NCBI GenBank assembly: GCA_000004695.1
Contig: CM000155.2
Coordinates: forward strand, 2,880,001 to 2,944,000
Length of the DNA: 64,000 nt
Source of the DNA: Dictyostelium discoideum
Taxonomy: Eukaryota
Reading direction: 5' to 3'
Shown: in pieces, positions 461 to 46,768 of the stretch
How the letters are laid out: every line of letters starts with the position of its first letter
Position numbering within the stretch: position 1 is the first letter of the stretch
Notes under the pieces: generated by a model
Databases searched by the model: none
Told to the model about the DNA's origin: nothing
What the model saw: the letters and a program-made list of their open reading frames with translations, nothing else
Made by a program: the position numbers and the translations under genes

Positions 461-499
<39 letters not shown>

Positions 500-500
<1 letters not shown>

Positions 501-688: not shown

Positions 689-806
689 GTAATTTATTAT
701 TATTTATTTATTAATAATATTATAATATATATTTTTAAAATATTAATTTATTTTAATTATTATTATTTATTATTATTGTTTTTTTTTTTTTTTTTTTTTT
801 TTATAG

Positions 807-866
807 ACCAATGCTTTGAAATATTTCAAGATTTTGAATCAATGCAAGGTTATTTTCTTGATCCAG
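807..866 (+). CDS. ABCA-family ABC transporter, exon 3
   Basis: Acceptor is ttttttatag (806). The exon reads [21 protein letters not shown], ending at donor GTTAGT (867). Confidence 0.5.
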
Positions 867-951
867 GTTAGTATTTTTATTTTTTTGTTTTTAATTTTTT
901 AAAATTCTCAACTTATTAATTTTTTATTATTTTTTATTTTTTTTTTTTTAG

Positions 952-2209
952 AAAATTATAGAGGAGTAATGGGAGGATTATGGTTTGATGAAAATGATTA
1001 TCGTTATAATGCACCAAAAGTTTTAAAGTATAGTATTAGTGTTGATGCAGATTATACAAATGATAATAATATACAAATTTCTCCAAGATCAGATTCACAA
1101 ATTTATCTTAGACATTATTTTACACAAATTCAAACAGCAGTTGATCAAGCAATTTTTATGGCACAAAATGTTGAAATACCAATGGTTGTAACTGGACAAA
1201 GATTTCCAAACCCTTATATACATTTATGGCAAACTTGGACCGATGGTAGAAATATGATTTTAAAAGAAACTGGTGGTATTTTTATAACTGCAGCTATATT
1301 CGTTGGTTTATTTACAACAATTACAAATATGGTAATGGAAAAAGAGTCAAAGATTCTCGAAGCAATGAAAATCATGGGATTACATTCACTTCCATATTAT
1401 GTTTCAATTGCAATTTCATCATGTTATACAATTATTCCATCAACGATAATTGTAATTGTAGTATTAAAAGGTTCACAATTAATTTGGACAACACAATGGT
1501 ATATTTTAACGATAATTTTAATACTATTTTCAATTTCATTGATTTTATTGGCATTTATTTTATCAAAATTTTTCAATCGTTCAAAATTTGCAGGTCTTGT
1601 TTGTTTTTTAATTGTTTTAATTATGGCAGGAATTGGTATTGCTGTAAATCATATCAATGTTTCAACTACCGTTAAATTAATTTTTTGTTTACTTTCACCG
1701 GTTGCAATCTCTTTAGCAAATTATTCAATGTCAATGAAAGATTTAGAATTAGTAAAAATTGTTAATCCAGATTGGTCAATTATCGTCTCAGAAAATCAAG
1801 TAATTGGTATGTTAATTTTAGATGTAGTTTTATATGCTGCATTAGTTTGGTATATTGATAATATTATCTCTGGTGAATTTGGTCAATCAAAACCATTTTA
1901 TTTCTTTTTAACTAAAAGTTATTGGTGTAAGAAAAATGCCAATGAAAATGATTTGGTCGATTTATCAAAAGCAATTGAATCACCTTTATATTTAAGAAAA
2001 AAGGATTTAGATTATAATAATAGTCAAGATTTTGAATTAAATGAAATTCATTCAAGTAAAGCAACAATCCAAATTAGAAAATTAAGAAAAGAATTTAAAA
2101 CTGGTGATGGTAAAAGAGTTGCTGTTGATGATCTTTCAATTGATATGTATCAAGATAGAATTCATTGTTTTTTAGGCCCAAATGGTTCTGGTAAATCAAC
2201 TACAATTGG
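952..2209 (+). CDS. ABCA-family ABC transporter, exon 4. It covers the large extracellular loop, TMD1 and the start of NBD1.
   Basis: Acceptor is tttttttttag (951). A 414-aa ORF contains multiple TM helices and ends in Walker [13 protein letters not shown]. Donor is gg|GTAATT (2210). Confidence 0.8.
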
Positions 2210-2305
2210 GTAATTTATTTTTATTATTATTATTAAAAAATTATATATAATTATTTATTTTATTAATTTTTTATTTATTTATTTATTTATTATTTTTTTA
2301 AATAG

Positions 2306-5300: not shown

Positions 5301-5540
5301 AATGCAAAATTAGTTGATCATCATGATTTATCCGCAAGTTTTGAATTACCAAATTCTTTAGATTCACCAATTCAATTATCAAAAATATTTTCAATTATTG
5401 AAAGAAATTTAAAACCAATTTTAAATGATTATTCTGTTGGTCAAACTTCAATTGATCATATATTTTTAAAATTAACAAATTTAAATCAACAAAAAATTAA
5501 AAATCAACAAAAAGAATCAATTGAAAATCATATAATTGAT

Positions 5541-5574
<34 letters not shown>

Positions 5575-5774
5575 GTTATTTAAAGAATCATAAAAAAACT
5601 ACAAGTAACAATAGTATATTAACCAATAATAGTACAACTAAAAATTTTGGTTCTTCAAACTTTTTAGATCTTGAATCAGATAATACATATTTAAATAATT
5701 TAAAATATTTAGAAGATGATGATTTTAACATTGAAATGCCACCATACCAAAATTCACTTAAAAAATCATTTTAA
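2306..5774 (+). CDS. ABCA-family ABC transporter, exon 5. It covers the rest of NBD1, TMD2, NBD2 and a Asn-rich C-tail.
   Basis: Acceptor is aaatag (2305). The join gives TTIG-MLTGL, the typical ABCA motif after Walker A. The ABC signature LSGGQKRKL, Walker [13 protein letters not shown], a second Walker [11 protein letters not shown], a second signature YSGGNKRKV and [10 protein letters not shown] are all present. TAA stop at 5772-5774. Confidence 0.85.
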
Positions 5775-5889
5775 AAAAAAAAAAAAAAAAAAAGGGTTAT
5801 AAAAAATAAAAAGTTTATATTTTAAATAAAAAGCTTTATTTTATATTTTTTTTAGTTTTCAAAATTATTTATAGATATAGACCCACATC

Positions 5890-5920
<31 letters not shown>

Positions 5921-6334
5921 AAATTTAAATAACTAGATAATAAATAAATAATAAAATTAATTACTTAATTCAAAAAAAAAAAAAAAAAACCAACCAAAAA
6001 AATAAAAAAAGTGGACTAATTATTTTTTTTAATTTTTTTTAAAAGATATTTCAGGAGATATGGATAATTTTGGAAACCAATTTTTTTTTTTTTTTTTTTT
6101 ATAAAGGTGGGAATTATTTTTATTTAAATTTTTAAATTTTTTTTTATTAAGTTGGGAATTATTTTATTTTTTAAAAAAAAAAAAAAATATCTTCTTTAAA
6201 ATATCTTGATCAACTAAAAAAAAAAAAAATGCAAAACACAAAAAAAAAAAAATTCGAAAAACAAAAAAAAATCAAAAAAATCTTTTAAATATTTTTTTTT
6301 ACAAATAACCAAACAAGTCATAAAATTAGTAATT

Positions 6335-6795
6335 ATGAAAAAAGATTTTTTTCTTTTATTTATAATACATTTATTAATTTTTTTATGTAATTGTCAAACT
6401 AATATTCCTGGAGATTTTCCAAATTATTATTTAACAATTTTGGAAACAAGTTCAGAAGGAAATGGGACTTTCTCAGCATACCCTTCTGTTTCTAATCAGC
6501 AAATATGTACATTCAATTACAATGCATTGGTTCAACATCGAGTAATAGATGGTAACGTAAATACATTGGTATCATCATCGAATGAGATTAAAATAGTTCC
6601 AATGTCTAGCAGTGGTGATTGTAAACTATTTTCTTTAGTTGGTACTTTTAATACTGGTACATCTATTAGTATTAATTTGACTGCAAACTCTGAAGCAAAC
6701 TTTACAATTAATTATACTTGTAATGGTAATTTTTAATAATTTAAAATTTTAAAAGTAAATTAAATAATTTATTTTATTAATTTTATTTATTTTTA

Positions 6796-6848
<53 letters not shown>

Positions 6849-7573
6849 TTAAAATTTCGGAAATTGAAGTTGTAATTTTAAGACCATTTGTTGTTTATGA
6901 ACATCAAATGTTCCTTTCCTCATTTATGTTAAAAGGAATGGGTGGTCATATTTTTAATCAAATAGAAGTCCAAACAAAAGATTCTGGTGTAATGGGTTCT
7001 TATACAGATGTTGGAGGTTTTTTATTTATTTGGAACATATTCTATATAATTGATAATATTAATAATCCCTATTGGAATATAACAATTGCTTTAGGAAATG
7101 ATAATAAAACTATTTCATTTAAATCTCTTTATTCAGAATGTATGTATTAATTTTTAATTTTTAATTTTTTTTTTTTTTTTGAATTTATAATCTATTCTCT
7201 AATTTTAATTATTTTTTTTCAAAAAGATTCGTTTGAACAATTACCACAACAATTAAATGAGTTAATATTTTATCCAGAAAATTATAATAATCAAACTTAT
7301 TCACAATTTGGTTTTGGATCTAATCCATTTTTAACAACAAGTTTCAAAAGTGAAGTTTTTCCTCCATTTCAATTTCATTTTCAAACCTATGCTTACCCAA
7401 AACCTATTAAAGGATCAAAGAGTGAAATGGTTTTTGGTTTAGAATTTCTTGGTTCGAATGATCCATCTCATCCTTTTACCAATACCCTTATAATTCAAAA
7501 TAAAACATCGATAATTAATTCAACAATTGATTCAGTATGTAAAAGTAGGTTTATTTAATTTAATTTTCAAAAA

Positions 7574-7669
<96 letters not shown>

Positions 7670-8392
7670 TATAATTTTCTAGCTAACACTATAATATACC
7701 CAATAAGTCTTCCCACCTCCTTCTTTTCCAGAGGTTGGAAATAGAATTTTATTACAAGGAGAAGAAATTTTTAATTTTATTGTAACTAAATTAGAATATT
7801 ATTTTTCAGAATTTGAATTTAATTATAATGGAAAATCATTTATTAGAGGATTTCCTTATGGTTTTTATAGAGGTTCAAATGATAACCAAACACTTAGTTG
7901 TTCATTTAATAATCCATTATTCTTAAGTGACCCATCATTTAATTTGAAAATTATCAATGGAGACCAAATTGTTTTTAATTTTGATCCAATAGCAACAATT
8001 TGTAAGTTTTTACATTTTAAAACTACAAATCCAATTATTCCAATTATTTATTAACCATCTTATTTATTTAGGTAAAAGTATTAATACTCCACCAAGTATA
8101 ATAAGTTATAATTTTATACCAATTAATTCATTAACATGTTTATTAACTATAGAATTTAAATCTGATAATGGAGTTTATTCTATTAATGTTGGTCAAGAAA
8201 CATTTGGTTTGGAATCACTCACCAGTGGTAATTCAAGTATGGGTACTTTTGAATTTATTTTTAATATTATTTATTCACCAATTAATTTAAGAGTTACAGA
8301 TTCCTGTGGATTATTTTCATCTTTTAATCATGGTGATATTATTTCAATGTATCCTTTACTTCAATATAAAGTTCCAGACTATTTATTAAATA

Positions 8393-8429
<37 letters not shown>

Positions 8430-8885
8430 ATACAATAACTAATTTTTAAATCTTTTTTTTTTTTTTTTTAAAGAATTTTCATATGATACTTTTAATATAA
8501 CATTTGAAAAAAATGAAGTTAATTTATTAAATAAAACGGGGTATAATATTCTTTATATAGATGGAAATAATTTATCACGATATAATACATTAGGTATTTT
8601 ATTATATGATCAAGTTTCAGTCACCCTTTATGATCTAAATTTTATTGATAATGTAGTTCCTTGTGAATATAATGGTATAGAAAATAGATTTGAATGTAGA
8701 TTAATTATTCCAAAAAACAATATTTATGATTATATTAGATATGTACTTGTATTTGGATCAGGTAATAGATTAATGTATTCTGGTAATTTTCCGATATTCT
8801 CAACATTAAAAGTTAGTGATTCATGTAAGTAAATTCTGAATTACTTAAAAAAAAAATATATTGTTGTAAAAAAAATAAATATTAA

Positions 8886-8919
<34 letters not shown>

Positions 8920-11044
8920 ATTTGGATAATGATGGTCCAATTTTTAGTTTAATAGAAAAGATAGATGGTATTGATTTTGTATCAGGTATTAAACAAATTG
9001 GTTGGAATTTTACAATAACTGATGATTTAAATGGATTTGAAAAAGGATACATAAAAGTAATGGGTTCATTAGATAGTTCAACCTATGAATTTAATTTTAC
9101 ATCATTAGATTTTATTGAAGGAGATAAATGGAATGGAGTTTATTCATTATTAATAAATGTATCTTCAGCATGTTGTTCTCAAACTTTAACAATTACAAAT
9201 GTTATATTATATGATACAAATAATATCGTATCAAAATTTTCAATTTTTCCTAGAAAATCCTGGGCAGATACTCTTACAAATCCATTTAGAAATTATTATA
9301 AAAGTGGAATGAATATAACAAAGATCAATATATCTTGTGATATTGAATTATTTCCACAAGATGATTCAAATCCCGTAATATTATCAACATTTAACATTTC
9401 CACAAATATTTTAAATGTAATTGGTACAAATAGGGATGTAACAATTGATTTTTCAGTTATACCCTCAACATCAGGTTTAAAATTAGATCAATTACCAGTG
9501 GTTTATATTCATGCTAACCCAAATTCTTTAATTGATTGTAAATCAAAATTAAAAAGTCATAATCAAACATTAGTTGTTTATTCATGTACTATTGAAATTC
9601 CACTTGGATTTGGGTATCCTGGTAATTTATTATTTTCAATTTATGGATTCATTAATAATGCAGGTTTTTATAATGGAATTTTATCAGAAGATATTGAACT
9701 AATTGGAGCACTCAATTATATTTATACAACACTATCATTGGATGAACCAACAATCACTTCAACATCATACATTTATTCTGATACAACCCAATTTCAAATT
9801 TTTGGTAGAGGTTTATCTAAAAGTTTTAATGTTAATATTTATTATTCTACATATAATTTAACAGTACCTCCAAAACAAACTAATAGTTCATTTTTAACAA
9901 TAAATATTAAGCCATCAAAAGATCCATTTAAAATTCAAGTTGAAACATTAAATCATAAATCAAATATTTTTACAATTTATCCAATTTATTTTGATTTAGA
10001 TCGTAATGAAACAAATCCAACTCAATCACCAACTCCAACTCAATCACCAACTCCAACTCAATCTCAAAGTAATTTATGCAAAGGTAATCCTCAATGTGGT
10101 GGTCCAAACCAAGGAGTATGTAGTTTAAATGGTTGTATTTGTTTTTCACCTTGGATGGGTTCATCTTGTAATTCTCAAATTATAATTGTACCACAACCAA
10201 CAATTAATACAACAAGCCCATCAACTGTGATTCCAATACCTAATAATTCAACAGATTCATCAAGTTTATTATATAGTACATTAATTTCAATTGTATCATT
10301 AAGAGAATTAAATTTTAATGGTGGTCAAGAAAAAATATTTTATTTTGAAAAATGGATTTATTCAAATATTAATGATTATAAAAGTATTTATTTTACAACA
10401 ATCCCATCAGTAAATTCAAATATAACAGTAACATTAGAATGGTATAATTCAAGTTCAATTATTAAATTTGCAAATGAAACTTTTACAATGAACCCGTCAA
10501 GTATTAAATATACAATTGAAATTGATGGGTATCAATTTTCAAATAAATTAAATAGTCTTCAATTGGTTTTATCAGCATCATTAGAAACTAATAAAGAAGA
10601 TGTTTGTTCATCTAAAGAATTTTGGTCAACTGATACTACTAGTGATTATTTAAAAATTCAAATTGAAGATCATTCTCTTTACGGTAGATTTATTAAGAGG
10701 AATTGTCAATGGTAAACCAACAACTATATCAAATCAATTTTTAGATAAATTTCTTAATACAATTGATGAACCTTCATCAGTTCAATCATTCATTGGTATT
10801 ACAATTCCAAATTTTTCAAAAAATATTACCATTGACCCAGACTTTTCTGTTCTTTTTGATTATTCTAAAGATTCAAACTCAAATTGTTATTCAAATTCAA
10901 AACTATCAGGTTCTCAAATTGCCGGTATTATAATTGGTTCTGTATTGTTTGTAACAATAATAATAATATCAATTATCTATTACATTATTAAAAAAAGAAA
11001 ACAAAAAATATTTTTAAAAAATATTGGAGGTAAACTTCAAAAAA
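6335..11044 (+). CDS. Multi-exon gene for a secreted type-I transmembrane glycoprotein with an EGF-like Cys-rich module and a Ser/Pro/Thr linker. It may belong to the dictyostelid IPT/EGF adhesion-protein families.
   Basis: Exon 1 (6335-~6724) encodes the signal peptide MKKDFFLLFIIHLLIFLCNC. Further approximate exons lie at ~6870-7138, ~7226-7546, ~7732-8000, ~8071-8392, ~8474-8822 and ~8920-11044, each bounded by GTAAGT/GTATGT donors and t-rich..AG acceptors. The last exon carries QSPTPTQSPTPTQSQS, then CKGNPQCGGPNQGVCSLNGCICFSPWMGSSC (EGF-like), many N-glycosylation sequons, a C-terminal TM helix IAGIIIGSVLFVTIIIISIIYYII and a KKRKQK stop-transfer. The reading frame shifts by +1 between ~10657 and 10713 (see findings). 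The exon 1-2 connection is uncertain. Confidence 0.55.
7565..7672. repeat. (ATT)n microsatellite of about 36 units inside an intron of the glycoprotein gene
   Basis: A perfect run of attattatt... is present. Confidence 0.9.
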
Positions 11045-11270
11045 TAAATAAATAAAAATAATAAAAAAATAAAAATAAAAATAAAAATTAAATTAGCTTT
11101 GAAACTAATTGGGTTTATAGGTTTATTGATTTGTAATAATATTTTTAAATTTTTTATTCTATTTTTGTTTTGTTGAATGTTTTTTTTTTTTTTTTTTTTG
11201 TTCAGTTTGTTTTTATATATATTTTTTTTTTTTTTTTTTTTTAAAAAATAAACCATAATTTAATATAATT

Positions 11271-14200
11271 TTACATTTGTCTTGAAACTAATTCAGCATA
11301 GAAACCATTTTCAGCTAATAAAGTTTCATGAGTACCTAATTCAACTACTTTACCTTCTTTTACGACTACAATTAAATCAGCATCAATAACAGTTGATAAA
11401 CGATGAGCAATTACAATTGAAGTACGACCTTTAGAGACATTATCGAGTGCAACTTGTACTACTTTTTCAGAGACAGTATCTAAAGCAGATGTAGCCTCAT
11501 CTAATAATAAAACCTTTGGATTACGAATAATAGCACGAGCAATTGCAACACGTTGTTTTTGACCACCAGATAATTGAGTGAATTTATCACCTAATTGAGT
11601 ATGATAAGCATCTGGAAGTGATTCAATAAAAGTATGAGCATTTGCAGCTTTTGCAGCTTCAACAACTTCATCCATTGTTGCATCAGGTTTACCATAGATA
11701 ATATTTTCAAAGATTGTACCACTAAATAAGAAAGGTTCTTGACCAACTAAGCCCATATTACCTCTTAACCAATTCAAATTTAAATCTTTAATATTTACAC
11801 CATCAATAGTGATTGAACCTTGAGATGGATTATAAAAACGTTCAAGTAAAGAGATAACCGATGATTTACCACCACCACTATTGCCAACCAAAGCTACTTT
11901 TTTACCATGTGGAATGACTAAATTAAAACCTTGGAATACTGCTTTATTTGGACGTGATGGATAAGAGAATTTAATATCTTTAAATTCAATATCACCTTTG
12001 AACTCTGGTAAAGTTTGACCTTTATTTTCAAATGGATCAATTTCTGAAACTCTATCGATAAGACTAAAGATTGCTACGGCAGCTAATTTAGCTTTACCTA
12101 AATCTGGCATAAATGCCATTGATTGACCAACACCCATAGCAGACATAATAATTGCAAAGAATACTCTCATCATCATTGAAAAACCTTCAGTTGTAGTGAA
12201 AGATTTAATACAAGTAGCTTCATCGGTATAGCCAATATTAGCATATTCACCATTGTAACAATAAGTTTCTAAAGTTGATTCTTTTGCTGGCCATTCACCT
12301 GAATCTACTAATTTACCACCATACCAATAGGTGAGTGTATAAATAAAGAAGAGAGTACATTGTGAGAAACCAAAAGATAAACCACTAACATTTGATTTTC
12401 TAAAACTCATTTGAATTGGTTTTTGAAGACATTGACGGAACTTTTCCAAGATTTTATTTTCACAAGTGAATGAAGAAACTGTACGAATACCACCAATTGC
12501 TTCAGATGCAACTTGACCACATTCAGCATAAGCCTCTTTACCTTTTTGAGAGAAACCTTGGAAGAAATCCATTTCAACTTTACCTGCAAAACCAATTACA
12601 GGTACACATGCTAAAACCACCAAAGTTAATTTCCAACCACTAACAAATGCAATTACTAAACCAGCAACAATTGTAACAATATTTTGAATTAATAAACCAA
12701 GACGTTGTGAAGTCATACCTTGAACTAAAGTTGCTTCAGTTGCAAGATTTGCTGTTAATCTACCAGTTGAATTCTCTGTTAAATCAAACCAACCAATATC
12801 TTGTCTCATAATTGATTCAAATGATAATCTACGAAGATTAAATGTTAATTTCTCTCCAATGAATGTGAAACAATAAATTTGAATAAAGTTTGCCAAAGCT
12901 GCAACAACTGCCAATAAAATAAACCATAATGCCATATTTCTTGAACGACGAGTCAATTCATCAGTATCTTGTTCTTGGAAAATACCCAAAATCTCTGAAA
13001 AGATAATTGAAAATACTGGCATAATTGCACCATTTAATGTTGCACCAACCAAACCAATTAAGAAATGTGGCCAATCACCTCTACTCAATTTTAAGATACG
13101 ACCAATTGGTACAGATTTTTCTTGAGGTTTTTTTTCTTTCTTCTTTTTCTTTTTATTATCATTATCATTTACTAAACCAATGGTTGAAGTTTCTAAACTA
13201 TCGGCACCAATACTTTGAATTGATTTATCAATTGAAATACTACTTGGACCAATATTATTATTACTTTCATCTTTTGATGATTCTTTTGATTTCTTTTTCT
13301 TTTTTTTATCACCATCATCACCACCTTTTTGTTGTCTATTAACCAATTGAGTGTAAACACCATTTAAAGCATATAATTCTGGATGAGTACCAATTTCAAC
13401 GATTGCACCACCTTTAACTACAGCAATTTGATCAGCATCTTGAATTGTTGATAAACGATGAGCAATTACAATTGTGGTACGACCAATCATTAATTTTTCA
13501 ATTGATTGTTGTACTAATAATTCATTTTGAGAATCTAAAGCCGATGTGGCCTCATCTAATAATAGAATCTTTGGATCTTTAATCATTGCACGAGCAATTG
13601 CAATACGTTGTTTTTGACCACCAGACATTTGAACACCTTTTTCACCAACTTGAGTATCATAACCCTCTGGTAAAGCACTAATGAAATCATGAGCATTTGC
13701 GGTTTTACAAGCTTCAATAATTTGATCCATAGTTGCATTTTCATTACCATAACGTATATTTTCAGCGATTGAATTTGCAAATAACACTGGTTCTTGTGAT
13801 ACTAAACCAATATTTCTTCTTAGTGAATGAATATTAATCTCTTTAATATTTGTACCATCTAAATAAACTTCACCTTCATCTGGATCATAGAAACGTTCTA
13901 ATAAACCAATCACTGAAGATTTACCACCACCACTATCACCAACCAATGCAACGGTTGTACCTTTTTTAATGGTTAAATTGAAATTATTGAAAATTTTAAC
14001 ATCTGGACGTGATGGATAAGAGAATCCAATATTTCTATACTCTATATTACCTTGAACAGTTTCTTCAATTGATCTACCTTCAGTAGAGAATGGGTCGATT
14101 TTAGAGTTACGATCAACAACCTCATAGATTTTAAAAGCTGCACCTCTACCATTTGCAAATGATGCAACATTTGGACTTGCTTGACCTAATGCCATAGCAC

Positions 14201-14614
14201 CCATAATCACTGAAAAGAATACAGTTAATACATCACCACCTTGCCATGGTCTATCTGGTACTGGATTCCATTTTCTATCGACAATTAATTTACCACCATA
14301 CCAAAATGATAACGAATAAGTACCAAATAATACTAAAAATACTAAACCAATACCAATACCATTCATTATACCTTTCTTTGTACCAATATCTAATGCTTCC
14401 TTTAAACGTTCAGTATAACGTTTAACTTCAAATGGTTCACCTGAAAATGTTGAAACAGTTCTAATTGATCCAATCTTTTCTTCTGCAACACCACCAGCTT
14501 TTGCATATGCATCTTGACCTTTCTTTGTTAAATCTGCCATCATTTTTGTCATAAATGCTCCTGCTGCTGCAATTAATGGTGTTAATGCAAAAATTACTAA
14601 AGTTAATTGCCAAC
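11271..14614 (-). CDS. ABCB (MDR/P-glycoprotein-type) full transporter, last exon. It covers most of TMD1, NBD1, the linker, TMD2 and NBD2.
   Basis: A 1093-aa ORF. NBD1 carries GDSGGGKSS, LSGGQKQRIAIARA and ILLLDEATSALD. NBD2 carries GNSGGGKSS, LSGGQKQRVAIARA and VLLLDEATSALD. A lysine-rich linker lies between the halves. The acceptor on the minus strand is ttatag at ~14616-14615. The stop codon TAA is at 11271-11273 on the minus strand. Confidence 0.85.
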
Positions 14615-14741
14615 CTATAATATATTATAATAATAATAATAAAAAAAAAAAAAAAAAAAAAAATTATTGTTAATTTAATTGAAAAAAAAAATAAGAAAAG
14701 AAAAGAAATACAAAAAAATAAATAATAATTATAATTTTTAC

Positions 14742-15108
14742 CATTTACAAAACCAACAATAAAACCACAAATAAAAGTTGAAGTATGATGTAAGAAATTA
14801 CCAATTTTCTCACCAATTGCTTCTTGGAATAATAAAGTATCACTACTAATTCTAGTTGAAAGTTCACTAGATTTTGTAACATCATACCAACCAATCTCTT
14901 GTTTAAGAATTGCTTTTAAATAAGCTTTTCTACATCTAACTGCTTGACGTTCACCTGCTAACATCCAAAATGCTACTTCAACATATGAACATACAAAAAC
15001 ACCACAACCAATATAAATAAAATACATTGCATTTGATGTAACTGTTTCAACTAAATCAAAATTTGGATCCGCTAAATTTTCTGGTGAAAATGAATTCATT
15101 AAACGACC
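14742..15108 (-). CDS. ABCB transporter, exon 3
   Basis: This exon reads GRLMNSFSPENLADPNFDLVETVTSNAMYFIYIGCGVFVCSYVEVAFWMLAGERQAVRCRKAYLKAILKQEIGWYD...FVNG. The donor is GTAAAAAT on the minus strand at ~14741. The acceptor is ttttttttatag at ~15110-15109. Confidence 0.75.
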
Positions 15109-24027: not shown

Positions 24028-24129
24028 ATGTTAATCCCAAAAGATGATAAACTCGTTGCCGAGAAAATGATAAATATAGCAAAAAAACTATGGTTTATTG
24101 GTTTCTTTTTCTTACCATGGGTTTGGTTA
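24028..24129 (+). CDS. N-terminal fragment of a PEN-2 (presenilin enhancer 2, gamma-secretase subunit) homologue, truncated by an assembly gap
   Basis: The fragment reads MLIPKDDKLVAEKMINIAKKLWFIGFFFLPWVWL. It matches the first TM hairpin of metazoan PEN-2; compare [28 protein letters not shown]. The ORF runs straight into the 100-N gap. Confidence 0.4.
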
Positions 24130-24229
24130 NNNNNNNNNNNNNNNNNNNNNNNNNNNNNNNNNNNNNNNNNNNNNNNNNNNNNNNNNNNNNNNNNNNNNNN
24201 NNNNNNNNNNNNNNNNNNNNNNNNNNNNN
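24130..24229. other. Assembly gap of 100 N. An isolated n also sits at ~24317.
   Basis: A run of exactly 100 n characters. Confidence 0.99.
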
Positions 24230-25145
24230 TTTGTTTTTATATATTATGTATTCTAATTACGGACTCATCAACATACTCTTTTGTCACTAACAGATAAAGT
24301 TTCGTTTGATTATCTTNTGGTGAAAACATCAGCATCAGATTGTAATTGATCAGCTCTTTTATAACCCGTTTTGTTTTTGAGTGATTGAGATGTGATTCCA
24401 CCATTATTGGAAGTTGTGACAGCTTCATGTGTTGATCAAGCATGGGTGGTAGAGAGCTCGATAGCTTTTTCAACTAGGTCATCTGATGATTTTCATTTGG
24501 TTATTTCAATATCCCTGTGCAATTAATTTTTACTTGTCTCCGCCTCTCTAAATTCAACATTTACTTTGTACTTCAAATCATTTTTATCAATAGTAACTTC
24601 GTTAAATAATACACCAAATTCATCACTTTGATTGAATTCAACATCTTTAAATTCCAAAAAAGCGATATCTTCGGGTGGATACTTTTTATTAGATTTATTG
24701 TTTTTACTGTAGATCATTTTTTGGAACGAAAACTTTAAAAAAATAAAAAAATAAAAAAAAAATACTTTTTAATTTTTTTAATTTTTTTTTTTATATTTTT
24801 TTTTTTTATATTTTTTTTTTTTAAATTTTTTTTTTTAATTTTTTTTTATTTTATTTTTTAAAGTTTCGAACAATTATATATAAAAAAAAAAAAAGATATC
24901 CCTTCGGTTAATTATAGTAACAATACAGACAACAAGAATAATTATAAAATAAAAAAAAAAAAAAAAAAATCTTTTTTTATCTTTTTATTTTTATTTCTTA
25001 TTTATTTTTATTTTTTTATTTTTTATTTTTTTTTTAATTATTTTAATCCCGTGAGTTTTTTTTTATTATTATTTTTAATTCTTTTATATTTGAGATGATT
25101 ATTATTAATTAAATGACTTTGAGTTTTTTTTTTTATTTTTCTATG

Positions 25146-25320
25146 CCCAAAATTACCATATTAATTTCGGCAGCCATATTAATTTCAGCCTAAAATAGTT
25201 GGTCTGTGCATGCCAAAATTAATATGGCTGCTGAAATTAATATGGTAATTCTAGCAGACATAAGTCCCATGCCAAAATTATCATATTAATTTCAGCAGCC
25301 ATATTAATTTTGGCATGGGA
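25146..25320. repeat. Foldback repeat cluster: three copies (direct, inverted, direct) of a unit of about 45 bp
   Basis: Copy A (25146-25190) and copy C (25269-25320) are direct copies. Copy B (25211-25255) is their reverse complement. A and B form a hairpin with a loop of about 20 nt (taaaatagttggtctgtgca). The unit itself contains an internal duplication, CCATATTAATTTC x2. Confidence 0.8.
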
Positions 25321-25540
25321 CAAATATGAATTAAAAAGAAAACAAACTTTAGAACTAAAAGAATTAAAAAGTGAATGTGGGGAAGGCCCGGTATTATCTA
25401 AAGAAGAATCAAAAGAATTGGATGATTTAGAAAGAAAATATAAACGTGTTGGAAATTAAAAAATAAAAAAAGGTAAAAAAAAAGTAGATAAAAATAAAGA
25501 TATTAAATTATAATGTGTTTATCCACGCTCGAGGAAGGAT

Positions 25541-27243
25541 TTATAATCCAACTCTTTCTAATCTATCATATTCATTTTGTAATAAACCAATTTCTTTTTT
25601 TATTTCATATTGTCTTTCTTTTGTTGTCACTGGTTTGAAATTAATTATTTCATCAGTATCTGACAACCAATTTTTAGATTTGAATAATTCATATAAATCA
25701 GAATGTGTCATCATTAAACGCAATACACCACCCGAACCATATGGTTCAATTTTAATTCCAAAAGTTTTCAATGTGGTTTTTAATTCAGCTTCTTTAATTG
25801 TATGTTTATTATCTCTGTTCATTTCCTGATGATATTTAAATTCATTTACAAAATCAGTGAATTTAATTTTGTTCAAATCTTTACCTTGTAAAATGTAATT
25901 TTTTTTAATATATTTCATATTTGCCGGTAATTGATCACTTTTCATCCCAATAAATGTTTCAGATTGTGGTATAACATCTTCATTAAATTTAGATTTATCA
26001 CTATTTTTCAATTTCCAATAAAATGATTCAGCTACATTTGGATCGTCCATATATTTACCTAACTTTTCAAAATAATCTTTATTTCCTTTGAATTCAGATG
26101 ATAAATCAAATATAGCAAAACGTCTTTATACTGATGCGCCTATCTTTATATTATCAGAATTACAAGTGAAAATCATATTCATATAATTAGGTACATTTAC
26201 TTTATCATTTTGATTTCTTTTACGAATGGTAATTAATAGTTCAGTAATAATATATTTAATACCCTCACCAACATTATTCCAATCCTTTACAATTGGTTCA
26301 TCAACCACCATTAATAGCTTTTTCTCAATAATATCATTCCATCCACCAAAAAGTCACAATTATTTACTGATGCGGATATATTATAACCTAAAATCTTTGT
26401 AATAAAGAAATTTGTAAAAATACCTTTTCCAATACCACCCATAAATAATCTCCACATTAATGCAGTCCTAAGTTTACGTCCTTGACTACATGCTAACCAA
26501 TTAATTAGATATGAATATTGTTCTTCATTAAGAGAACAAATTGCAACCTTCAAATGGTTCATAATCACATCAACACCCTCCAGTGTCGTGGTGCTGACCC
26601 CGTTTGGTTCGCTATCATAGAACCAACCTGCAAATTCATTAACACATAAACTACAATCATCTCGTTTAAAAATTCTATCTTTATCTGGAACCCAAGTTGG
26701 TGTACAATGATTTGGTTCATACTCCATAAACCATTGGTAAACATCAAAATTTGGATAACCATCAATTTTGATTATTCTTCTTCTAAAATATGTTTTCTCT
26801 GCATCTGAATACGATAAATCTTTTATTTGTTTATCACCTGGCACCCAAAATCTAAATATTGGTGAACCACCTATTTTAATAAAGTATGTTGATATATACT
26901 TTTTTATATTCTCAACTTCGTCAAATGTTTTTGCAGTTACACACATAATATTTAATGTGTTTACATCAAATGCTTGTTTTGACGAACAAAATAAATGTGG
27001 GTATGATTGATTAAATAATGACTTGTTCACTTCTACTGGTTCTTGATTTAGCGGGCAAGTTAACTTGGCTACTAAATCTTCTTGCACTAAATCTTCTTCT
27101 TCTAAATCTTTTTGCTCCACTAAATCGTTTTCCAATTTATCAACAAGCTCTCTCCAACTCTCATCTGAATCTCTTCTATTTTTATCTGTATGTCCAAGTT
27201 CTTTTGCTCTTTCAATAAGTTGTTGTTTATTAGGTTTTACCAT
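25541..27243 (-). pseudogene. Degenerate SF3 (D5/P4-type) helicase-like ORF, split into three pieces by a frameshift and a stop. It is probably derived from a virus, plasmid or mobile element.
   Basis: Three consecutive minus-strand ORFs lie at 26311-27243, 26126-26311 and 25541-26050. They carry a degenerate P-loop (LFMGGIGKGIFTNF), a Walker-B-like LMVVDEP and a motif-C-like MIFTCNSDN, in SF3 helicase order. A Cys/His-containing N-terminal domain precedes them. No intron signals are present. Frame breaks occur at ~26311 and ~26050-26125. Confidence 0.45.
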
Positions 27244-27259
27244 TTTATATAACTATATA

Positions 27260-27703
27260 TTATGTAAAGTTTAAAATAAAAAATAGAGAAAAAAATAGAA
27301 AAAAATATCTTTGTTGGTTTTTTATAACATTAATTTCAAGTCTTTCATAGTGTTTTCTATCAATAAAAACATTTTCAACTTTATATTCTGGTATCTCATC
27401 ATTGAACGCCAATAAAATATAATCATAATTATATAAATTTATTTCACTACCATCTGTCATATTATAAATTGATAGAGATTGATGTTTTTTGATTTTATCT
27501 AAATATATTTTTAATGATACTATAATTCTTACATCTCCGCTAATTATTGTATAATATTGATATGGTCTATTTTGATAATTCATTTTTATATATCGGTATA
27601 TTATGTAAAGTTTAATGTAAATGTGATGTAAAAAGTTGTGTAAAAAATTTTGATTTTTTTTTTCAAAATCTTTTGATTTTTTATTATTTTTATATTTTTT
27701 CAA
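27260..27703 (-). CDS. Small hypothetical ORF inside the mobile-element-like island. The true start is possibly the internal Met MNYQNRPYQYY, which would give a protein of about 105 aa.
   Basis: A 147-aa ORF with no recognised similarity. It lies between the helicase-like pseudogene and a frameshifted + strand ORF. Confidence 0.2.
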   Translation of the reverse strand: MKKYKNNKKSKDFEKKNQNFLHNFLHHIYIKLYIIYRYIKMNYQNRPYQYYTIISGDVRIIVSLKIYLDKIKKHQSLSIYNMTDGSEINLYNYDYILLAFNDEIPEYKVENVFIDRKHYERLEINVIKNQQRYFFLFFSLFFILNFT

Positions 27704-27747
27704 AATTTAAACTACATATACGGTAGTTTTTTTTGATTGTATATAAA

Positions 27748-28213
27748 ATGTCAGAAAAAAGTATAACAGATTTAGTTACAATTGCAAAAGAAACAAAAGT
27801 ATTATCTGTTTGTTCCAGTATCTCTAGCTGCTTTTGTAAACCAAAATATCAAAAAAGAAAGAAAATTAAAAAAATTCGAAAGTAGAGACTTTTTTGCCGA
27901 TATCAAGGATCAATTAGATGGACTGGAGTGCTCCTTATTTAACACCATCAACCTTTTTTTTAGTCCAATTGAAGGTTTTGACCAACTTTCCGACTTATTA
28001 GTAAAAGCCATGTTCAAAGATGAAATTGCTCCATTTGGAAATGCAACCAATGTTATTAAAGCTTTTTGTAAAAGAGTCTCTAACTATGGAGAATTAATTC
28101 ATAATTTTATAAGATGTTATGACAAAGATGATTCATATAATATTTTAGAAAATTATGAAGCTTTAAAAATATCCCTAAACAAACTTTTGTTGTTTGTTGA
28201 AACACAAATTTAA
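27748..28213 (+). pseudogene. Hypothetical ORF with an apparent +1 frameshift near its 5' end
   Basis: ATG at ~27748 gives MSEKSITDLVTIAKETKVLSVCSS, which terminates at ~27885. The 143-aa ORF at 27782-28213 in another frame overlaps it and continues as VPVSLAAFVNQNIKKERKLKKFESRDFFADIKDQLDGLE...; this looks like a single gene broken by an indel. Confidence 0.3.
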
Positions 28214-28299
28214 TAACAATATAAAAATAAAAACAATCACCTCCGCAAATTCGCAGTTTTTTGCGGGTTTTAATTTTATCACAACAACAATAATTATTT

Positions 28300-28590
28300 A
28301 TTTATTTTTTCGCGTGTAGAAAAGTAGAGAGTGTAGAGTGATTTCTGACGAACTAGTACGGATTTCACAAATACACAAAAATAGTGCACGTCATATAAAA
28401 TCAATAGAGAACCCCTATAACTCCTCTTACGTTATGCACGATATTGTGTTTGTGTAATTCTGTGCGCGTGTATTAAAATCAAGAGGGATTGTTAGTACGT
28501 TATCATTATACATGACGTACACAGTTTGCACTTTTTTTTATGTTTTCGTACTTTTTTTTACTACTCACTCTACAACTCTATTTTTCTACA
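28300..28590. repeat. Imperfect palindromic (foldback) element of about 280 bp with atypically GC-rich composition
   Basis: The left end reads GTAGAAAAGTAGAGAGTGTAGAGTGA. The reverse complement of the right end reads GTAGAAAAATAGAGTTGTAGAGTGAGTAG. Internal arms also pair (agtacgGATTTCAC...GTGCACGTCAT versus ATGACGTACAC...cgtact). CG dinucleotides (cgcgtg, gtgcgcgtg) are otherwise very rare in this window. Confidence 0.6.
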
Positions 28591-29837
28591 TATATATAAA
28601 AAATTAAAAATAATATTAATATTACATGAATATATGTATAGAGTAATATATAGATAATAAAAATATGGAATATAGTTTAGAGTGATTTTAGGTTATAGGA
28701 GCATAGCCGAAGGCTAATGCGATAGGGAAGCAGCAAAGCGTTCCCTCACACCTTCCCTCACACCTTACCATTTTATGACCTTCCAGAATATAGTAATTTT
28801 CAAGGTACTATTGATAAAAAAAAAAAAGCTAAATTATTTTAAATTTGTTTTCTTTTCACCAATGATAAATCTAATGATGGATTCACAATCATTTCGATAT
28901 AAAACAAATAAATTATTTATTGTTTTTTTTTGTAAGGTTGTTAAATTATAATTTTTCTTTTTCTTCTTATTATTATGTTTATTATTTAATAAATTATTAA
29001 TACTAATATCTAAAAATGTTATTTATTTATTAATTAATTAATTAAGTACATACTATTGGATGTTTTATACATGCCATAAACCAACCTATCAAGAATATGT
29101 TGAAAGTTTACAATCAATAATTTAAAATTGTTATAATATATATTAATAATTAGGGAAATTGAAGAGAATAAAATTTACATCCTAATCCTCCATTTCCCCA
29201 AAAATTTTCAAAAATAAATAAATAATTTAAAATATTAATACAAATTGTATGTGTATATTAAATAATAATAGATTAAAAAAAAAAAAAAAAAAAAAAAAAT
29301 TAAATTAAATTAAATTAGAATCAAAATTTCCTTCAAACATAATTCATGCTCTTCTATTCCTGTAAAAAAAAAAATTAAAATTAAAAATGTTGGGGTGTGA
29401 AATTTTAAAAATATGTTTGTTTGAAACAAAAAATAAAAAAAAAAATGGTGTAGATCGCCAAATTAAAAGCCAAGATTGTTCAAATATTTCCAATGTATTG
29501 ATGGATGCAACAAAGAATTGGAAAGAAATGCCAGAAAGTTGGAAAAATAAATTAAATTTTTATTAGTAATTTTTTAGTTTTGTTGCAAATTTTAATAATC
29601 AACAAAATAATAATAACTAGTAATAATAAAAAAACATAAAAAAAAAAAATATTTTTTTGAATCCAAACTTTACAACTTTAAAAAAAAAAAACTAAAACTA
29701 AAAAAGGTAGAGTGCACTTGTTAGGTTTGATGCTAATTATTTATTGATTTTTAATATTATTTTTTTTTTTTTTTATTTCTGGCAAACTTAATATGGAATA
29801 TCAGTTACAACCTGTGCAATATGAAAGCACTTGGTCT

Positions 29838-31254: not shown

Positions 31255-31566
31255 ATGGATAATAATGTTGAATATGAATTAAAAGAAGTCTCTATTCAAG
31301 AGGGTGGTAGTAATTTAAATATTAATACACCAAGTGGAATGAGTGATGGAGATTTCAATAGCGGCGCAAATTCACCAGATATTGTAAAAAGTGAAAATGA
31401 TTTTGATAAATTGGCAGAAAGTTTAGAAAAAGAATCAAAACAATATTTTGCGGCTCAAGATAATGAAAATAATGCTGGAGAAAGTGAGGAAGATTTTAAA
31501 TTACGTAGATATTTCGAAAATTCTCAACGTATGGCATTAAGTAATGGTTCAAAACCAAAGAAAATG
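31255..31566 (+). CDS. ABCG (PDR-type, full-size) transporter, exon 1
   Basis: ATG at 31255. The exon reads [18 protein letters not shown]...SNGSKPKKM. The donor GTAAAT is at 31567. Confidence 0.75.
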
Positions 31567-31648
31567 GTAAATATTAAAAATTTTTTTTTATTTTTTATTT
31601 TTTTACATCCCAATTAATTTTTTAATTTTATTTTTTAAAATTTCATAG

Positions 31649-31867
31649 AGTATTTGTATTAGAAATTTAACAGTTGTTGGTCGTGGCGCAGATTTATCAG
31701 TTATTGCAGATTTATTAACACCATTCAATTGGTTTATAAGTTTATTTAAACCATCAACTTGGAAAATTGAAAAAACTTCAACATTTAATATTTTAAATAA
31801 TGTCACATGTTTTAATAGAGACGGTCAAATGTTATTAGTTCTTGGTCGTCCAGGTGCTGGTTGTTCT
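31649..31867 (+). CDS. ABCG (PDR-type) transporter, exon 2
   Basis: The acceptor is tttcatag (31647-31648). The exon reads [16 protein letters not shown]...[11 protein letters not shown], ending at donor GTAAGT (31868). It contains the degenerate PDR-type N-terminal Walker A motif GRPGAGCS|TLL. Confidence 0.8.
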
Positions 31868-31934
31868 GTAAGTTTTTCAATTTTTTAATTTTTTTTTTTC
31901 CTAATTCCTTTAATTAATATAATTTTTATTGTAG

Positions 31935-32225
31935 ACATTACTCCGTTTAATTTCAAATCAAAGAGGTTCATACATTAGTGTTGATGGTGATATTAAATAT
32001 GGTGGTATTCCAGCAAAAGAATGGGAGAGATATAAAGGTGAAGCAATTTATACTCCTGAAGAAGATTCTCATCATCCAACATTAACAGTACGTGAAACAT
32101 TAGATTTTGCACTTAAATGTAAAACCATTCATAATCGTTTACCAGATGAAAAAAAAGTTACATTTAGAGAGAAAATTTCAAGTTTATTATTATCAATGTT
32201 TGGTATTGTACATCAAGCTGATACT
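31935..32225 (+). CDS. ABCG (PDR-type) transporter, exon 3
   Basis: The acceptor is ttattgtag (31934). The exon reads [24 protein letters not shown]...IVHQADT, ending at donor GTAAGT (32226). Confidence 0.8.
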
Positions 32226-32269
32226 GTAAGTTAATTTTATTTTATTTTATTTTATTTTATTTTATTAAA

Positions 32270-32298
<29 letters not shown>

Positions 32299-32301
<3 letters not shown>

Positions 32302-35300
32302 GTTGGTAATGAATATATTAGAGGTTTATCAGGTGGTGAAAGAAAACGTTTAACAATTACAGAAGCAATGGTATCATCAGCATCAATTACATGTTGGGAT
32401 TGTTCAACTCGTGGTCTTGATGCAGCATCAGCACTTGACTATGCAAAATCAATTCGTATTATGTCTGATACATTACATAAAACATCTATTGCATCATTTT
32501 ATCAAGCATCCGACTCTATTTATAATTTATTCGATAATGTATTAGTATTGGAAAAAGGTAGATGTATTTATTTTGGTCCAGTTGGTCAAGCCAAACAATA
32601 CTTTTTAGACTTGGGTTTCGATTGTGAGCCACGTAAATCAGTACCAGACTTTTTAACTGGTGTTACCAATCCACAAGAACGTATTATTAGAAAAGGTTTT
32701 GAAGGTCGTGTTCCAGAGACATCTGCAGATTTCGAACAAGCATGGAAAGCATCCGAGTTGTGTAGAGAAATGGAAAGACAACAAACTGAACATGAGAAAA
32801 AGATTGAAGTTGAACAACCACATCTCGATTTCATTGAAGAGGTAAGAGCAAACAAAAGTAAGACAAATACAAAGACATCAGTTTATACTACTAGTTTCCC
32901 AACTCAAGTTAGAGCTTTAATCGTTAGACATAGTCAAATTATTTGGGGTGATAAGTTTTCATTGGTATCTCGTTATCTTTCAGTTATCATTCAATCATTT
33001 GTTTATGGTTCTGTATTTTATAATATGCAAACCAATCTATCAGGTCTTTTCACTAGAGGTGGTGCAATCTTTGCTGCCATTCTTTTCAACGCTTTTCTAA
33101 GTGAGGGAGAGCTTTTTGCTACATTTTATGGTAGAAGGATTTTACAAAAACAACAGTCCTATGCTATGTATAGACCAAGTGCTTTTCATATTGCACAGGT
33201 TGTAACTGATATTCCATTGACTACAGTTCAAGTTTTTTTATTTTCCATTGTTGTTTATTTCATGTTTGGACTTCAATACGAAGCTGGTAAATTCTTTATT
33301 TTCTGTTTCACTTTAATTGGTGCTACCTTGGCTACAACCAATATGTTCCGTGCCTTTGGTAATTTATCACCATCACTTTATGTAAGTCAAAATGTGATGA
33401 CAGGTATATTAATTTTCATGATCAGTTATTGTGGTTATTCAATTCCAAAGAATAAAATGCATCCATGGTTCGGTTGGTTCTTTTGGGCAAATCCTTTCAC
33501 TTATGCTTTTAAAGCATTAATGGCAAACGAATTTATGGATTTAAATTTCTCTTGCGAAACTGAAGCAATTCCATATGGTACTGATCCAACAACTGGTGCT
33601 CCTTATGATAATTCGGTTAGAGTTTGTGCATCTGCTGGTTCACGTCCAAATACATTGGAGGTTAAAGGTTCAGATTATTTAATGGATGCCTTAACATTTA
33701 AAAGTGATGATCGTACATTAAACATTTTCATTACTTATCTTTGGTGGGTACTTTTCATCATTATAAATATGGTCGCAGTTGAATATTTAGAATGGACAAG
33801 CGGTGGTTTTACAACAAAAACTTATAAAAAAGGTAAAGCTCCAAAATTAAATGATGCTGAGGAAGAGAGAAAACAAAATGAAATTGTAGCAAAAGCAACT
33901 AGTGAAATGAAAGATACTCTTAAAATGAGAGGTGGTGTTTTTACATGGGAAAACATTAAATATACTGTTCCAGTTGGTAAAACTCAAAAATTATTATTAG
34001 ATGATGTTGAAGGTTGGATTAAACCAGGTCAAATGACTGCATTAATGGGTTCATCAGGTGCTGGTAAAACAACACTACTCGATGTTTTAGCAAAGAGAAA
34101 AACATTGGGCACTGTTCAAGGTAAAACTTTCCTTAATGGTAAAGCTTTGGAAATTGATTTCGAACGTATCACTGGTTATGTAGAACAAATGGATGTTCAT
34201 AATCCAGGTTTAACGGTTAGAGAAGCATTACGTTTTTCTGCTAAACTTCGTCAAGAACCATCAGTTTCATTAGAAGAGAAATATGATTATGTCGAACATG
34301 TTTTAGAAATGATGGAAATGAAACATTTAGGTGATGCTTTAGTTGGTACTTTAGAAACTGGTGTTGGTATTTCAGTTGAAGAAAGAAAAAGATTAACAAT
34401 TGGTGTTGAATTGGTTGCTAAACCTCATATTCTTTTCCTTGATGAACCAACGTCTGGTTTAGATGCTCAATCTTCTTATAATATTGTTAAATTCATTCGT
34501 AAATTAGCAGATGCTGGTATGCCATTAGTTTGTACAATTCATCAACCTTCCTCTGTATTATTTGAACATTTCGATCGTATTCTTTTATTAGCTAAAGGTG
34601 GTAAAACAGTTTATTTCGGTGATATTGGGGAAAGATCAAAAACTCTTACTTCTTATTTTGAACGTCAAGGTGTACGTCCATGTACTGAATTTGAAAATCC
34701 AGCTGAATATATTTTAGAAGCAACTGGTGCTGGTGTTCATGGTAAAACTGAAATTAATTGGCCAGAAGTTTGGAAACAATCACCAGAACTTCAAGAAGTT
34801 CGTAGAGAATTATCATCTCTTGAAGCTTCTGGTTCATCTTCATCCTCTAATGAAAATGGTGTTCCAAGAGAATTTGCAACAAGTATTTGGTATCAAACAT
34901 GGGAAGTTTACAAGAGAATGAATGTAATCTACTTTAGAGATCCTTTCTATGCCTATGGTAGTATTCTTCAAGCTGTTATGACTGGTATAATTGTAGGTTT
35001 CACTTTTTGGGATTTAAAAGATAGTTCATCCGATATGAATCAACGTATTTTCTTCATTTTCCAAGCTCTCTTACTTGGTATCCTTTTAATTTTTGTAGTT
35101 ATGGTTCAATTTTTAGTACAAAAAGAATACTTTAAAAGAGATTACGCTAGTAAATTCTATTCTTGGTTCCCATTTGCAATCTCAATTGTTTTGGTTGAAA
35201 TTCCATATACCATTGTTTGCGGCTCGGTTTTCTTCTTTTGTTCATTCTGGACTGCTGGTCTTTTCATGGAAGGTCAAAATGGAGCAAACTTTTACTTTTG

Positions 35301-35823
35301 GATTATCTTTATCATTTACTTGTTCTTCTGTGTCTCATTTGGTGGTGCAATTGCTGCAGTTTGTAATCATATGTTTTTGGCAATGACTCTTGTACCATTA
35401 CTAATTGTTTTCCTATTTCTTTTTTGTGGAGTTATGGTTCCCCCAAGCCAAATTCCTACGTTCTGGAAGGGTTGGGTCTATCATTTAAATCCCTGTCGTT
35501 ATTTCATGGAAGGTATCATTACAAATGTTCTCGAACATCAAAAAGTTAATTGCTCATATGAAGATTTAACTAAATTTAATAATCCTACAACTTTAACATG
35601 TGAAGAATATTTTGTACCAGCAACTGGTTATGTTACAAATACTACCTCTGATAACTCTGAATGTGGTTATTGCATTTTCAATAGTGGTGAACAATATTAT
35701 AAAACTCTTGAATGGGATGCTTCAAATAAAGGTCGAAGTATTGCAATTCTAATTGCTTTTTGGATGTTCAATATTTTCTTAGTCGTTTCATTTGTTTATT
35801 TAACAAGAAAACCAAGTAGATAA
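32299..35823 (+). CDS. ABCG (PDR-type) transporter, exon 4. It covers the rest of NBD1, TMD1, NBD2 and TMD2.
   Basis: The acceptor is tttttaag (32298). The exon carries [11 protein letters not shown], a second Walker [43 protein letters not shown] and two 6-TM domains, in NBD-TMD-NBD-TMD order typical of PDR-type transporters. TAA stop at 35821-35823. Confidence 0.9.
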
Positions 35824-46361: not shown

Positions 46362-46596
46362 CTATTAATTTCAAAATAATAAAAAACAATAAATAAAAAA
46401 AATTAAAAATTAAAAAATAATAATAATAATAAAAAATAAAAAAAAAATAAAAAAAAGAATTAGTCAATTGTTTAGAATTATTTTTTTATTTTAAATATTT
46501 TTTATTTTTTTATTTTATTTTTTTTTTATTTTTTATTTTTAATTAAACATTATTTTTTTTTTTTTTTAAAAAAATAATAAAAAAAAAAAAAAAAAA

Positions 46597-46650
<54 letters not shown>

Positions 46651-46668
46651 TAATTATAATAATAATAA

Positions 46669-46768
46669 NNNNNNNNNNNNNNNNNNNNNNNNNNNNNNNN
46701 NNNNNNNNNNNNNNNNNNNNNNNNNNNNNNNNNNNNNNNNNNNNNNNNNNNNNNNNNNNNNNNNNNNN
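46669..46768. other. Assembly gap of 100 N. It is flanked by (AAT)n on the left and by a (AT)n microsatellite of about 160 bp on the right (~46790-46950).
   Basis: A run of 100 n characters. Perfect (AT)n follows at 46790-46950. Confidence 0.99.

Follow-up and report, generated by a model that had tools for sequence, protein, structure and literature searches.

The C-terminal helicase domain of the phage NrS-1 primase-polymerase belongs to superfamily III; its ATPase, dNTPase and DNA unwinding activities have been shown, and R555 and R556 are its finger residues (PMC7102993). Polintons and related helicases have been reported from other dictyostelids (PMC3671162, PMC4642659). Here we describe a broken helicase gene of superfamily 3 (SF3) in a 64-kb stretch of chromosome 6 of Dictyostelium discoideum AX4 (contig CM000155.2, positions 2,880,001 to 2,944,000). 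This whole stretch is called the window and is numbered from its first nucleotide. The gene lies on the minus strand within an island of about 4.7 kb that adjoins an assembly gap, and its locus corresponds to the gene model DDB_G0293464. The helicase remnant is probably a decayed fragment of an endogenous virophage or Polinton-like element, carrying a dead replicative SF3 helicase gene of the DUF5906 family.

The broken helicase frame and its family

A first-pass annotation, made by a model from the letters of the window, had reported a minus-strand reading frame broken into three open reading frames (ORFs) with helicase motifs. The ORF list and three-frame translation confirmed ORF1 at 26311-27243, ORF2 at 26126-26311 and ORF3 at 25541-26050. 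ORF2 and ORF3 were found in one frame, with a single TAA between them (IGASV-stop-RRFAIFDLS), and restoring one base within the run GACTTTTTGG fused ORF1 to the frame of ORF2. A search of the frame repaired in this way against family profiles, as had been proposed, gave a significant SF3 match. The repaired protein passed Pfam DUF5906 (PF19263) with 50.7 bits (gathering cut-off 27.6, E=3.3e-13) and matched PHROG 1156, 'DNA primase', at 1e-9.

The annotated protein was used as the query in a full HMMER scan over 1.84 billion representative proteins. This gave 213 homologues (E<=1e-3), 43 of which reached E<=1e-10; they were mostly metagenomic, and most had lengths of 450-630 residues. Word-index searches over 5.8 billion proteins, which have limited sensitivity, showed almost nothing besides the AX4 protein, and the family emerged only in the full scan. 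The repaired protein was aligned with 26 homologues from about residue 85 to the C-terminus, the whole of ORF3 included. Because all three ORF pieces align collinearly with the family and keep its invariant residues, they belong to one gene. In the N-terminal domain the invariant or nearly invariant columns were W171, N202 and G206, and the 265 residues before Walker A aligned solely with the family's own N-terminal domain. Walker A, Walker B, the motif C asparagine and the arginine finger were all present in the family columns and in the correct SF3 order (Table 1). The 1.7-kb frame is therefore, on sequence grounds, an SF3-type helicase gene, as the earlier reading had it, with the DUF5906 match, the HMMER homologues and a profile match to NrS-1 in agreement.

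That profile match was obtained when the family profile was compared with the PDB. The NrS-1 helicase domain was recovered at E=5.6e-23 (6K9C, 6K9E, 6LRB), and papillomavirus E1 was matched weakly. About 210 residues are matched to NrS-1, including its GTGKG P-loop, Walker B, motif C and the Arg-Arg finger. However, NrS-1 has a bacterial host and carries an N-terminal Prim/Pol domain, none of which is detectable in the Dictyostelium protein, and the match leaves the C-terminal domain of the Dictyostelium family uncovered. In the Dictyostelium protein the P-loop lysine is followed by glycine, not by serine or threonine, and the P-loop (MGGIGKGIFT) had been called degenerate. The same GKG is found in the Synstelium homologue, in three metagenomic homologues and in the biochemically active NrS-1 helicase (GKQGTGKG), indicating that GKG is a normal, working variant of the family.

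The primase-helicases of nucleocytoplasmic large DNA viruses (NCLDV; D5 type), the African swine fever virus (ASFV) C962R type and the P4 type share the same P-loop SF3 core. The Dictyostelium protein differs from them in being a helicase only. Nothing besides DUF5906 was matched in it by Pfam at E<=1, and no primase, AEP, D5_N or PriCT domain was found, so the label of a D5-type primase-helicase, a group that the first reading had named within the family, was rejected. Among 66 homologues, DUF5906 was detected in 62, a VapE-like domain in 20 and the papillomavirus E1 helicase domain in five; a C962R-type AEP of ASFV was present in three, PriCT_2 in two and Prim-Pol in one. An AlphaFold2 model of one homologue (P0023), built on a shallow alignment of seven sequences, was poor (pLDDT 44.8).

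By homology with NrS-1 and papillomavirus E1, the intact protein of about 480-570 residues would have formed a ring. Its ATP sites would have been composed of Walker A (GGIGKG), Walker B (VVDE), the motif C asparagine and the Arg-Arg finger of the neighboring subunit. Driven by ATP, such a ring may have unwound the DNA of the element for replication.

The present sequence has no intact reading frame for an active enzyme, being interrupted by one frameshift and one nonsense codon. The frameshift falls between Walker A and Walker B. When one base is added, the frame reads on into NNCDFFGGWNDIIEKKLLMVVDE, which fits the family motif G-x-F-N...LLxLEE, and the invariant N303 is located there. The TAA stands before the arginine pair; the junction IGASV-stop-RRF aligns to the ...D-R-R... 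columns of the family, and the stop codon takes the place of the conserved acidic residue. ORF1 stops after Walker A, and the annotated product has neither the arginine finger nor the C-terminal domain. With a frameshift after Walker A and a stop ahead of the arginine finger, any product must lack part of the ATPase site, and an active helicase would not be expected from this sequence. If the reference sequence is free of errors here, this homologue of the family is a pseudogene. Exact look-up of ORF1 and of the annotated protein (P0001) among public assemblies returned no record.

The locus had been thought possibly undescribed, yet it already has an AX4 gene model, albeit one that hides the frameshift by an artefactual intron. 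DDB_G0293464 is annotated as a hypothetical protein of 443 residues, whose sequence is obtained when the window is read with splicing. It is named in no paper of the searched literature. The model raises the possibility of a live host gene, whose breaks would be explained by genuine short introns, or by sequencing errors in a region of poor coverage next to a gap. Besides the official model itself, this explanation can point to the presence of just two lesions in 1.7 kb, one of them in an error-prone homopolymer, to an ambiguous base and a gap less than 2 kb away, and to the boundaries of the 50-nt segment spliced out across the frameshift, which starts with GTAAAT and ends with AG. However, with this 'intron' (28% GC) the model loses 17 residues that have counterparts in the family, among them N303, the invariant asparagine of GxFN. 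The codons for N303 and its neighbors (FGGWNDIIEKK) precede the annotated splice acceptor and are read in the shifted frame. The conserved coding inside the segment indicates that the 'intron' is an artefact which bridges a true -1 frameshift, if the reference is correct. Moreover, the model ends at the TAA, although the conserved C-terminal domain can still be read in frame downstream of it.

The second annotated intron, of 76 nt (27253-27328, minus strand), joins the upstream ORF B to the helicase. It contains a 17-mer, AAACTTTACATAATATA, which continues with TATATAAAATG. The exact 17-mer has two copies in the 64 kb, each directly upstream of an island ORF, the other copy being the one before the ATG of ORF B. 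Since the motif recurs in this position, it is better explained as a promoter, and two genes with a shared motif fit better than one spliced gene. Both introns of DDB_G0293464 thus look artefactual, and the reference model, which joins an unrelated ORF to the helicase, drops a conserved motif by splicing and ends at a nonsense codon, is probably incorrect. No other sequenced group-4 dictyostelid was present among the 30 homologues with source names, which also argues against a host gene. Taken together, we regard a live gene as unlikely.

A reading in which both breaks are real introns was considered as well, as GCATCAGTA recurs at both. It was rejected because ORF2 and ORF3 lie in the same frame across one stop, and the intron reading of the frameshift was rejected also because the 50-nt segment encodes conserved residues.

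Genomic contexts of the relatives

The best homologue of the repaired protein was found in the dictyostelid Synstelium polycarpum (36% identity), which probably has a second gene of the family. A further eukaryotic homologue was present in the fungus Rhizophagus irregularis, and the remaining ones lie on metagenome contigs of 1.5-24 kb. The genes surrounding some of these relatives point to the origin of the Dictyostelium copy.

One homologue (P0007) is encoded on a 17.7-kb contig (L002, Ga0209960_1002582) beside pPolB and an integrase with rve and chromodomain; an adenovirus-type protease was matched weakly, below the cut-off. By its predicted genes, L002 carries a Polinton/Maverick-type set. 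The same contig encodes, at 7664-10600 on the minus strand, a protein of 978 residues, which contains long tracts rich in proline and in glutamine and gave no family match; an unassigned gene this large is unusual for an element of that size.

Single-protein queries with P0007, P0010 and P0067 returned no relatives from IMG/VR. Seven contigs with family members were retrieved from this database by searching its DNA with a degenerate pattern that encodes the family motif EVGEAFY. One of them (L015, IMGVR_UViG_3300005861_000026, 1-13840) is 13.8 kb long and encodes, besides the family helicase, a major capsid protein of the Sputnik type and an integrase with rve and chromodomain. A VLTF3-like transcription factor, an ATPase and an HMG-box protein are also encoded on it, and an inverted repeat of about 110 nt lies near its termini. 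Its predicted gene content gives L015 the appearance of a compact virophage-like genome. The GC content was 22-32% in all eight contigs, that is, L002 and the seven IMG/VR contigs.

The Dictyostelium copy resembles this virophage/Polinton family of about 500-570 residues in length and in its AT-rich genomic context. Both show the same collinear order, with an N-terminal domain (W..N.F.G) followed by Walker A, GxFN, Walker B, motif C and D-R-R, and the C-terminal domain with VGEAFY and WIHETD is common to both. In contrast, a frameshift and a stop interrupt the Dictyostelium copy, and none of the partner genes adjoins it. About 85 residues form an additional, acidic extension at its N-terminus, and its identity to the homologues is only 24-36%.

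DUF5906 helicases are also common in phages (178 records) and are present on small bacterial plasmids, and the nearest solved structure is a phage protein. These facts, together with a 312-bp palindrome about 1 kb from the helicase gene, would fit a helicase acquired from a phage or plasmid of bacteria, such as those taken as prey, or an integrated Dictyostelium nuclear plasmid with the palindrome as a plasmid-type origin. However, phage and plasmid matches reached 49-86 bits over 37-76% of the core; the best of them (82-86 bits) covered the ATPase core only. The repaired protein matched the helicases of L002 and L015 with 166 and 114 bits over 461 and 385 residues, respectively. The N- and C-terminal domains were common only to the metagenomic family of about 500-570 residues, and those members that have a context adjoin chromodomain integrases, pPolB or a virophage capsid gene, which are eukaryote-associated. 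The plasmid relatives recovered from PLSDB were bacterial plasmids only. On these comparisons, which covered phages and bacterial plasmids, a phage or plasmid origin is quite unlikely.

Full-length relatives are found on virophage- and Polinton-type contigs and in scattered eukaryotes, and no conserved dictyostelid gene family was seen. With the two lesions, this agrees with the first-pass proposal of a decayed insertion rather than a cellular gene.

The island around the helicase and its host flanks

The coordinates of the helicase motifs and of the other features of the island are collected in Table 1.

Table 1. Features of the island and of its left edge, in window coordinates
Feature	Position	Strand	Basis or remark
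Helicase gene and its lesions
SF3 (DUF5906-family) helicase, predicted pseudogene	25541-27243	-	567 residues upon conceptual repair; Pfam, family alignment, PDB profile match
Walker A / P-loop GGIGKG	26422-26439	-	Lys is residue 273 (repaired); G270, G272 and K273 invariant
-1 frameshift, one base missing	26348-26352	-	T5 run (A5 on the plus strand); ORF1/ORF2 junction
50-nt 'intron' of DDB_G0293464	26318-26367	-	bridges the frameshift; annotated protein reads ...ISAS/LLMVVDEP
Walker B LLMVVDE	26297-26317	-	aligns with family LLxLEE columns; E316 invariant
Motif C IFTCNSDN (sensor Asn)	26150-26173	-	family I-I-x-S/T-N-N columns; N353 and N362 nearly invariant
In-frame TAA	26126-26128	-	at conserved Asp/Glu position, immediately before the arginine-finger pair
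Arg-Arg (arginine-finger) codons	26120-26125	-	beyond the stop; R374 and R375 nearly invariant; equivalent to NrS-1 R555/R556
Other features
17-mer, promoter-like, copy 1	27256-27272	-	13 nt before the helicase ATG
17-mer, copy 2, exact	27597-27613	-	14 nt before the ORF B ATG
ORF B, 107 residues, orphan	27260-27583	-	no Pfam or PHROG match
ORF C, about 155 residues, orphan	27748-28213	+	given a +1 shift between 27776 and 27885; ORF list, translation
Imperfect 312-bp palindrome	28297-28608		inverted repeats I1, I2 and I6; GC-richer right end
Stop-riddled GC-richer (31%) frame	24237-24717	-	no family match; speculative
Triple foldback, thug-S hairpin copy	25146-25320		direct repeat D12, inverted repeat I10
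mir-7131 precursor	25219-25307	both	Rfam RF03716, 96.1 and 94 bits (gathering score 74)
miRNA_can_D3-3p, 21 nt	25160-25180		exact match to the published sequence
Assembly gap, 100 N	24130-24229		masks the island's left edge; interrupts host ORF 24028-24129

Besides the helicase, the island contains two orphan ORFs. For the part of the annotated protein that comes from ORF B (residues 1-85 of P0001), the full HMMER scan gave no match, and no homologue of ORF C was found in Pfam or PHROGs. ORF B, ORF C, an ORF at 25310-25459, the frame at 24237-24717 and the N-terminal extension of the helicase also gave no match in Pfam, PHROGs or tblastn against the fetched loci. ORF C had been reported as frameshifted; it does need a +1 shift when read from its ATG, but no homologue confirms that the shift is a true frameshift. 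A looser version of the 17-mer is all that was seen for ORF C. The frame at 24237-24717 is possibly another decayed gene.

The GC-richer palindromic element noted at the right end of the island was also found. This end has 31% GC, compared with 17% in the adjacent intergenic DNA. The palindrome folds as DNA with z=-5.2, and none of 100 shuffled sequences equaled it. It gave no Rfam or tRNA match. It could be the remnant of an origin or a terminus. To its right, a GC-richer patch (28690-28790) holds an exact tandem duplication of 12 bp, TTCCCTCACACC, in two copies (28741-28764).

Probably, a small virus-like element integrated, and most of it was later lost or now sits in the adjacent assembly gap. 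The helicase gene, the two orphan ORFs and the palindrome would then be the survivors. A bolder version holds that the island is the edge of a larger virophage or Polinton-like virus, with capsid and integrase genes inside the gap at its left end, or else a minimal, helicase-only integrated replicon. Such a replicon would consist of the helicase, two small genes with a common promoter motif and a palindromic origin. This version is on the unlikely side.

Several observations weigh against the decayed virophage or Polinton-like fragment that we favor. Capsid, packaging ATPase, pPolB, integrase and protease genes were not found in the island or in the rest of the window by Pfam or PHROGs. The double-jelly-roll major capsid protein is known only from L015, and the pair of pPolB and rve integrase only from the neighborhood of P0007 on L002. 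Terminal inverted repeats and a target-site duplication were not found either, as comparison of the island ends gave short or AT-rich low-complexity matches. Thus, the decay of the helicase gene was borne out, but the outline of a single 4.7-kb element, which the first-pass annotation had drawn, was not recovered, since terminal repeats, integrase, polymerase and capsid were all missing. The link of the helicase to the orphan ORFs and the palindrome is one that we infer from adjacency, one shared 17-mer and raised GC. In composition the helicase (28% GC) is indistinguishable from host coding DNA. Informative contexts were available for two homologues, and the other IMG/VR contigs (five) have mostly unassignable genes. 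Finally, the lesions are just two and lie in a gap-flanked, possibly low-quality region, and one or both could be sequencing errors.

The triple foldback to the left of the helicase was confirmed as repeats D12 and I10. It had been counted as part of the unknown element. Judged from its Rfam match to mir-7131 and the exact match to a published microRNA (miRNA), it is a known multicopy thug-S hairpin, separate from the helicase. The published 3p sequence, AUUAAUUUCGGCAGCCAUAUU, is matched exactly, and the 5p sequence is present at 25223-25245 with one mismatch; both miRNA_can_D3 sequences are from Table 2 of PMC4894637. Multicopy miRNA loci of the mir-7131 type are assigned to an intron of thug-S, a DNA transposon (PMC4894637, PMC6161686). 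Compared with the thug-S/mir-7131 hairpin, the foldback of the window has three arms, which form two overlapping hairpins. The hairpin is processed into small RNAs of the mir-7131 family.

A distance of 220 bp separates the thug-S hairpin from the stop codon of the helicase, and the island adjoins an assembly gap. Gaps in the AX4 assembly often mark repeats. The helicase could accordingly be encoded by a DNA transposon that has many copies in Dictyostelium, either thug-S or another repeat, and the island would then be one copy of a known repeat family. However, the word-index search, with its limited sensitivity, showed a single close relative, DDB_G0293464 itself. The 90% cluster of this protein has three member sequences, all from one contig, a weak point being that transposon ORFs may be under-represented in protein sets. 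No second copy of the island was present in the 64-kb window. A multicopy transposon is thus very improbable.

At the left edge of the island, an isolated ambiguous base (n) is found at 24317, close to the 100-N gap. A host-like short ORF on the plus strand (24028-24129), which starts with MLIPKDDKLVAEKMINIAKKLWFIGFFFLPWVWL, enters the gap directly. The gap therefore conceals both the island's left edge and the remainder of a host gene. The genes that flank the island are ordinary host genes, namely three ATP-binding cassette (ABC) transporter genes, an S-adenosylmethionine (SAM) methyltransferase gene and FANCI. The three transporter genes (903-5771, 11274-15108 and 31255-35823) are of the ABCA, ABCB and ABCG/PDR types, respectively; different subfamilies thus lie within 35 kb around the island.

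Two further observations concern the other assembly gaps of the window. The AT-rich stretch 24738-24955 of the island is about 70% identical to 46431-46668, which directly abuts the second gap (46669-46768); this likeness may be low-complexity similarity only. The third gap (53374-53473) adjoins a minus-strand ORF of 447 residues (53478-54818) with an Exo_endo_phos domain of the AP-endonuclease type, and about 1.2 kb from it lies a minus-strand tRNA-Ile gene (56034-56106). This ORF looks like a TRE-type non-LTR (long terminal repeat) retrotransposon inserted beside a tRNA gene.

A helicase relic in the D. discoideum lineage

From its sequence, no present-day function is predicted for the relic, and DDB_G0293464 should carry a pseudogene flag. 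Endogenous virophage, Polinton-like and Maverick elements are widespread in protists, and surveys detect endogenous virophage-type elements via their capsid genes. Because such surveys rely on capsid genes, a helicase fossil without a capsid gene is overlooked. To our knowledge, no virus has been isolated for the D. discoideum lineage. If the helicase remnant is indeed a fragment of a virophage or Polinton-like element, it would be a data point that this lineage was once invaded by a virus-like element. Virophage-class elements elsewhere depend on giant viruses. Should the island prove to be the edge of a larger virus or a minimal replicon, it would provide the first concrete trace in D. discoideum of a virophage-class infection and, indirectly, of a giant virus.

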